Origin: Escherichia coli
Lineage (GTDB): Bacteria > Pseudomonadota > Gammaproteobacteria > Enterobacterales > Enterobacteriaceae
DNA length: 64,000 nt
Strand: one strand, 5' to 3'
NCBI RefSeq assembly: GCF_044324785.1
Contig: NZ_CP172127.1
Shown: positions 27,379-27,464 of the stretch, one piece after another
Position numbering within the stretch: position 1 is the stretch's first letter
Layout: each line of letters opens with the position of its first letter
The notes under the pieces: model-generated
Told to the model about the DNA's origin: nothing
Database searches by the model: none
The model's input: only the letters and a program-made list of their open reading frames with translations
Position numbers and translations under genes: made by a program

Positions 27379-27464
27379 AGGAAAATCGCTCAATGAAAGT
27401 CGGGAGGGGAAAATAACAGCGTGGTAGTATAGCCAGCCTCATCCTTACCACTCAAGGCACGATC

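Follow-up and report, generated by a model that had tools for sequence, protein, structure and literature searches.

The 86 bp that lie between the divergent rep and ppiC genes, at positions 27379-27464 of the window (i.e., the whole 64-kb stretch of Escherichia coli DNA analyzed here), are in our judgement likely to constitute the ancestral, compact control region of this gene pair in Enterobacteriaceae and Erwiniaceae, with promoter workings that we infer from sequence and conservation. Genomes of the K-12 type carry a longer allele, where the central part of the spacer, including a predicted promoter core shared by both genes, has been exchanged for a toxin-like gene, yifN, and a gene for a small RNA.

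Organization of the rep-ppiC locus

The distance of 86 bp between the two start codons, already given in the initial annotation, was established from the sequence and the open reading frame (ORF) list, and agrees with RefSeq for the near-identical strain SC418, which has the same spacer sequence and the same gene ends, leaving an 86-bp gap (Table 1). An in-frame TTG at 27393 would provide a possible 5-codon extension of rep, which is used by no annotation. Over a 16-kb stretch, the window displayed 99.3% identity to strain N3 and ~98% to the other genomes listed; colinearity with K-12 extends from hemX to rsmG.

Table 1. Coordinates of the features of the short and long rep-ppiC alleles. Positions refer to the window unless an accession or locus is given.
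Feature	Location	Strand	Basis or remarks
rep, DNA helicase Rep	25357-27378	-	ATG 27378-27376, MRLNPGQQQ...; ORF list and RefSeq annotation of matching genomes
Divergent rep-ppiC spacer, short allele (probably ancestral), 86 bp	27379-27464	.	Sequence, ORF list, SC418 annotation
Central 67 bp, swapped in K-12-type genomes for 799-844 bp with yifN and the small RNA gene	27382-27448	.	Four-way alignment
Predicted extended -10 for ppiC, TGgTAGTAT (hexamer TAGTAT, 27425-27430)	27422-27430	+	Sequence and conservation; predicted function
Predicted rep -10 hexamer, TATACT, shifted by 1 bp relative to that of ppiC	27426-27431	-	Scan, geometry and conservation; predicted function
Predicted -35 for rep, TTGAGT, 18-nt spacer, overlapping the ppiC ribosome-binding region	27450-27455	-	Scan; 27450-27457 invariant across genera
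ppiC Shine-Dalgarno-like AAGG, 7 nt before ATG	27454-27457	+	Sequence; invariant across genera
ppiC, parvulin-type peptidyl-prolyl isomerase C, 93 aa	27465-27746	+	ATG 27465; ORF list and RefSeq annotation of matching genomes
GC-rich, terminator-like hairpin between convergent ppiC and ilvC	27750-27776	.	Hairpin/promoter scan
Small RNA gene, K-12	NC_000913.3 ~3959910-3959980 (locus L095, 3910-3980)	-	Unannotated, directly after yifN
Small RNA gene, KOr021	Locus L003, 2578-2648		Directly after yifN

For K-12, the initial annotation had placed yifN between ppiC and rep, with a spacer of several hundred bp, and had named MG1655 as the genome where the same 86 bp should be looked for. The reference record (NC_000913.3) agrees with this arrangement: ppiC starts at 3959813 and rep at 3960677, with the pseudogene yifN (b3777) at 3960012-3960460, so that the spacer amounts to 863 bp. 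In strain KOr021, the spacer measures 818 bp and the gene, of 149 aa, is intact and carries the annotation of a PemK/MazF-family toxin; in K-12 this gene is frameshifted. That the rep-ppiC spacer of the window has no room for yifN was equally confirmed, since the 86-bp spacer is too short for any ORF of the list; moreover, tblastn searches with 27 YifN-family proteins found no YifN homologue in the whole 64-kb window (best E = 0.14), and the covariance model of the yifN-associated RNA described below (R1) had no match there at E <= 0.01. A scan with Rfam 15 of the spacers of the window, K-12 and KOr021 returned nothing at E <= 1, and thus no known RNA family explains either allele.

Other length and coding differences were observed elsewhere in the window. 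In hemX (120-200), a perfect hexanucleotide repeat (CCTGCA/ACCTGC, ~14 units) is ~66 bp (11 units) longer than in K-12, and is thus a tandem repeat that varies in length without loss of the reading frame. Between aslA and aslB (3788-3810), it is K-12 that is ~66 bp longer, beside a REP-like palindrome (GCCGGATGCGGCGTGAACGCCTTATCCGGC). The ilvG gene (34975-36621, - strand) is an intact ORF of 548 aa, and its K-12 counterpart is the well-known frameshift pseudogene.

The short spacer is a frequent allele and probably the ancestral state

Among 5426 complete E. coli genomes, the 86-bp allele was found in 1363 (1224 of them at >=99% identity), including UTI89, APEC O2 and NCTC9022, and the yifN-bearing spacer in 4017 (~74%), including K-12, O157:H7 and O104:H4; ~46 genomes match neither spacer query. 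UTI89 belongs to phylogroup B2. With 1363 versus 4017 genomes, the difference is a lineage-level polymorphism and not a strain-specific event; from the initial proposal of a strain-specific indel, only the difference in length (777 bp between the two spacers) can be retained. An assembly or sequencing artefact, e.g., a collapsed region, was also considered as the origin of the short spacer; nothing in its favour was found, and its probability is negligible, being refuted by the presence of the same 86 bp in the 1224 independent complete genomes and in other species.

The outgroup sample came from a PpiC scan of species-representative genomes, comprising at least 80 loci, a set devoid of Salmonella, of E. 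fergusonii and of the cryptic Escherichia clades; rep, ppiC, ilvC and yifN were placed in these loci by tblastn. In the loci listed, a spacer of 73-86 bp was found in E. albertii, Citrobacter, Enterobacter, Pluralibacter, Pseudescherichia, Phytobacter, Cedecea, a Klebsiella sp., Erwinia, Pantoea, Mixta and Tatumella, and altogether homologous spacers of this length occur in at least about 25 enterobacterial species besides E. coli. These spacers align with that of the window over its full length, and that of E. albertii differs from it by 1 base. Outside E. coli, yifN was located between rep and ppiC only in Superficieibacter electus (85% amino-acid identity) among the loci listed, and a few genera display other, unrelated rep-ppiC spacers of 145-447 bp.

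The occurrence of homologous 73-86-bp spacers across the outgroups indicates that the short spacer is ancestral and the K-12 state derived. The window would accordingly preserve the ancestral arrangement, with nothing deleted in this strain, a polarity that rests on the sampled loci (>=80); a reading of the window as having lost sequence must be abandoned, as it is K-12 that carries an insertion.

The long allele is a replacement rather than a clean insertion

Allele boundaries were defined by aligning the window with SC418, K-12 and KOr021. The sequences are identical up to 3 bp beyond the rep start codon, and again from 16 bp ahead of the ppiC ATG. The intervening segment of the window is replaced by 844 bp in K-12 and by 799 bp in KOr021; hence the event is not a clean indel but an exchange of sequence. 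The K-12 locus (ppiC-yifN-rep, b3775-b3778) resembles the window in its flanking genes and their divergent orientation, and the two are identical in the 3 bp that adjoin the start of rep and in the final 16 bp of the spacer on the ppiC side. Conversely, it differs in the length of the spacer, in harbouring the yifN pseudogene and an unannotated small RNA gene, in its promoters for rep and ppiC, and in the absence of the conserved core at 27421-27431, which lies within the replaced segment and has no counterpart in K-12.

Regarding the nature of the additional sequence, the initial annotation had asked for mobile-element or toxin-antitoxin character. The latter was found in the PemK_toxin domain of YifN (see below); as for the former, a repeat search in the long allele revealed neither transposon-type terminal inverted repeats nor a clean target duplication. 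A single imperfect direct repeat of 21 nt (76% identical, copies 702 bp apart) brackets the cassette and may be due to chance, and a transposon signature was rejected on these grounds.

At its rep end, the long allele begins with 46 bp that show only a loose resemblance to the window, and are 84-96% identical to the sequence upstream of rep in Pseudocitrobacter, Kluyvera, Shimwellia and a Yersinia species, which indicates that rep has an alternative leader, also of old origin. In Pseudocitrobacter, Kluyvera, Enterobacteriaceae strain RIT691 and Shimwellia, a K-12-type 46-nt rep leader is followed by other sequence in the place of yifN and the RNA. Spacer lengths in loci of other genera were ~443-447 bp (L008, L009, L010 and L015), 231 bp (L024) and 145 bp (L018).

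Over 7 kb (26300-33500), from the 5' part of rep through ppiC, ilvC, ilvY and ilvA into the beginning of ilvD, identity to K-12 is only 92-96%, with 98-99% on both sides. This pattern suggests that the haplotype surrounding the polymorphic site is old or was imported, and that recombination has moved the rep-ppiC alleles about. On this basis, the lineage of the window could once have possessed the yifN cassette and lost it by deletion, or by recombination with an imported short allele. The linkage between allele and flanking haplotype is indeed loose, the flanks of the long-allele strain KOr021 being 98.0% identical to the window versus 96-97.6% in many short-allele strains, and together with the divergent block this suggests that the region has been shuffled by recombination. 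However, a simple deletion cannot rebuild a spacer that matches those of E. albertii, Citrobacter and Enterobacter base for base, core included, and re-import of a short allele, which may have occurred, would leave the identity of the sequence unchanged. We thus hold a past loss of the cassette to be quite improbable, and retain the reading of the short spacer as the ancestral one.

A predicted bidirectional promoter in the short allele

In 24 aligned sequences, two blocks of the spacer were near-invariant, 27421-27431 (GTGGTAGTATA) and 27450-27457 (ACTCAAGG), with variation in the neighbouring columns. In the first block, -10 hexamers of opposite strands overlap, namely TAGTAT at 27425-27430 (+) and TATACT at 27431-27426 (-), and A27426 and T27430 each correspond to position 2 on one strand and to position 6 on the other. 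A consensus promoter scan, a procedure that is explicitly not evidence of function, gave TTGAGT-18-TATACT on the rep strand as the sole sigma-70-like site in 27150-27800. The 86-bp spacer would thereby act as a bidirectional promoter with a shared pseudo-symmetrical -10 at 27425-27431; the initial annotation had likewise assigned both promoters to this region, which we accept as correct at the level of prediction.

In the proposed mechanism, this single core would serve both genes. Rightward, the extended -10 TGgTAGTAT would direct ppiC transcription from ~27437, yielding a leader of ~27 nt that includes the AAGG; as there is no recognisable -35 in this direction, the promoter would rely on the TG extension. 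Leftward, the -35 element TTGAGT (27455-27450) and TATACT would place the rep transcription start at ~27419, with a leader of ~41 nt. Since the predicted rep -35 overlaps the ppiC ribosome-binding site (AAGG), the second block would be doubly constrained.

Alternatively, the blocks might not represent a shared promoter at all, with rep and ppiC being expressed from two independent, non-overlapping promoters (some perhaps intragenic) and/or the conservation being due to a regulator site. The spacer is so short that promoters inside the rep or ppiC coding sequence are conceivable, a second extended -10-like site for rep is present (TGtTATTTT, 27418-27410, - strand), and a consensus match is no proof of a working promoter; against this, the second rep site is not conserved across genera, the sole sigma-70-like match makes use of the invariant core, and the invariant 11-bp block consists exactly of the two overlapping hexamers plus the TG extension. 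We consequently regard independent promoters as unlikely, although regulator-site, ribosome-binding-site or leader constraints could account for part of the invariance.

The shared-core arrangement has a precedent in the bidirectional promoters described by Warman et al., where start sites 18 bp apart form the commonest class in bacteria, and position 2 of each -10 hexamer pairs with position 6 of the hexamer on the other strand (preprint 10.1101/2020.01.31.928960; PMC12825309). As in those promoters, the two hexamers of the window site are shifted by 1 bp, which brings about this pairing at 27426 and 27430, and the site lies between divergent genes, with mRNAs predicted in both directions. 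Unlike them, the window site has been assigned from sequence and cross-genus conservation.

A mini-ORF of three codons, GTG GTA GTA TAG, is also found at 27421-27432, 13 nt after the conserved GGGAGGGG; it overlaps the invariant -10 block, and is probably a fortuitous by-product of the promoter sequence.

Predicted promoters of the long allele

With the core of the short allele gone, the long allele presents a different predicted arrangement: a rep-proximal promoter (GTCACA-17-TACAAT, preceded by TG), yifN, the small RNA gene, which has a promoter and a terminator to itself, and a separate ppiC promoter. In K-12, a ppiC promoter with the elements CTGACA-18-GATCAT has been located between ppiC and yifO by genomic SELEX with RpoD holoenzyme (PMC3946193).

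K-12 (L001) and KOr021 (L003, 2650-2697) differ between the small RNA terminator and ppiC, just upstream of the latter, where K-12 has 47 additional bp. These resemble a diverged copy of the ppiC start region, with CTGACAATT...GATCATG present twice, and contain the CTGACA-18-GATCAT promoter.

YifN belongs to the PemK/MazF family

YifN was assigned to Pfam PemK_toxin (PF02452; E = 7.5e-11, above the gathering score). Its AlphaFold model (pLDDT 77) had MazF structures as best Foldseek matches (E = 1e-5, TM 0.7 by target length), with weaker matches to the type III toxin CptN (4rmo, E = 2.8e-3) and to CcdB. Sequence identity to characterised MazF proteins is only 12-16%, and YifN has an extra C-terminal helix; a profile comparison with Bacillus subtilis MazF was not significant (probability 0.33), with S65 of YifN aligned to T48 of MazF. 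Sequence searches in NCBIfam, PADLOC and PDB gave nothing useful, and PHROGs yielded one family of unknown function.

Homologues of YifN were found in Serratia, Photorhabdus, Xenorhabdus, Pseudomonas, Aeromonas and Shewanella, and in 119 plasmid records. They are without a protein partner throughout, and their neighbours are different in every context; specifically, no annotated or conserved ORF that could encode a protein antitoxin adjoins yifN in 10 genomic and plasmid contexts, including E. coli, Serratia, Photorhabdus, Pseudomonas and Pantoea plasmids, and a Glaesserella plasmid. In phage collections, relatives of YifN did not exceed 48% identity, and a phage-borne origin of the cassette was therefore discarded. 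No study dedicated to yifN or yifO was found in the literature.

A small RNA gene accompanies yifN

In E. coli, the RNA gene has a predicted promoter of its own, with a TTGACA that overlaps the yifN stop codon, a 17-nt spacer and GATAAT (11/12 consensus positions), and the RNA, located downstream of this promoter, comprises ~70 nt and ends in an intrinsic terminator. With a covariance model built from 21 diverse copies, 95 loci could be evaluated, and in 93 of them, which belong to chromosomes and plasmids of many Proteobacteria, the RNA was detected beside yifN. In 85 loci it follows yifN in the same orientation; of 7 copies on the other strand, 6 follow yifN and 1 precedes it; and Superficieibacter adds one further copy downstream of yifN in the same orientation. 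Counted over 92 loci, the RNA is thus downstream of yifN in 91 and inverted in 7 (6 downstream, 1 upstream), and these inverted copies indicate a separate gene rather than a 3' untranslated region. As a control, 475 kb of rep-ppiC loci devoid of yifN gave no match above 22 bits, and the loci with yifN (K-12 and Superficieibacter) scored 73-74 bits (73.8 bits for K-12 and KOr021). All 4016 E. coli genomes with yifN also carry the RNA segment, which is intact in K-12 in spite of the yifN pseudogene.

Structurally, the terminator stem displays strong covariation and was the only element recovered in the RNAalifold consensus. An explicit tabulation of stems revealed two further short hairpins with similar loops (C-A/U-U-N-G-A) and compensatory stem variants: GCC/GGC (41 copies), GGC/GCC (4), CCC/GGG (3) and CGC/GCG (1) in hairpin 1, and CCC/GGG, GCC/GGC and UCC/GGA in hairpin 2. 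In the model-fitted alignment, these 3-4-bp hairpins had modest support, hairpin 2 being paired in 75%. In a distant group of yifN loci, the RNA is present twice, upstream and downstream of yifN (L161, 1215-1318 and 2037-2140; L162; L174, 1225-1327 and 2040-2142), and these duplicated copies have a third hairpin of the same motif and a length of ~103 nt.

The RNA matches no Rfam family and has no annotation in the K-12 RefSeq record, and a literature search found its sequence in no paper. Nonetheless, RNA-seq and northern blot of E. coli K-12 revealed in 2014 a small RNA "downstream of yifN on the same strand" (PMC4681348), and we consider it likely that the RNA exists and is expressed. An antisense (type I-like) model of its action was not supported, as the interaction of each RNA with its own yifN initiation region (mean -20.9 kcal/mol) was similar to that with non-cognate regions (-20.2 kcal/mol; Mann-Whitney p = 0.45).

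Significance of the polymorphism

The feature of the window itself is an ordinary ancestral state, common to a quarter of E. coli and to most related genera, and as such it is of little importance; it is one side of a common presence/absence polymorphism already visible in public annotation. The value of the locus resides in two points, the loss in the K-12 lineage of the predicted shared bidirectional promoter, and the poorly characterised small-RNA partner of yifN. Concerning the first, the promoter architectures of the two alleles are entirely different (a shared compact core versus separate promoters), and expression of rep, which encodes a helicase of the replication fork, and of ppiC may therefore differ systematically between short-allele strains, e.g., UTI89, and K-12-like strains; the two alleles thus represent a natural test bed for competition within bidirectional promoters. 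Concerning the second, if the RNA does neutralise YifN, short-allele strains would be natural cassette-free hosts and K-12 a toxin-dead, RNA-only remnant, and the polymorphism would reflect the acquisition of a mobile module for addiction or defence, for which a conserved bidirectional promoter was given up.

Comparison of the yifN cassette with known toxin-antitoxin systems

The cassette shares with type II systems of the MazEF/PemIK (Kis-Kid) kind the affiliation of YifN to the PemK/MazF family and a MazF-like fold in the model. It departs from them in that type II systems require an adjacent, co-transcribed gene for a protein antitoxin, and none stands beside yifN in the 10 contexts mentioned above.

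In type III systems, the antitoxin is an RNA encoded as a tandem repeat array upstream of the toxin gene in the same operon, with a terminator between both. The cassette resembles systems of this type (ToxIN, CptIN and TenpIN) in combining a protein of Kid/MazF-like fold with a small non-coding RNA, and the RNA contains 2-3 copies of a short hairpin motif. Unlike theirs, the yifN-associated RNA has its own promoter, is usually downstream and sometimes inverted, and forms no tandem array; a tandem-repeat RNA antitoxin preceding the toxin, which is what defines type III, is therefore not what the cassette contains. Our best guess, offered as a hypothesis only, is that the RNA binds protein and acts as an antitoxin-like inhibitor of a dimeric, MazF-fold YifN, an antitoxin role that is speculative. 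We propose tentatively, as a possibility that we still consider rather doubtful, that yifN and its RNA form an undescribed two-gene module, where a MazF/PemK-fold protein would be neutralised as a dimer by a ~70-nt RNA with two hairpins, and whose gene order and RNA architecture are unlike those of type III. Were the RNA an antitoxin, RNA-based control of toxins would extend to the MazF/PemK family.
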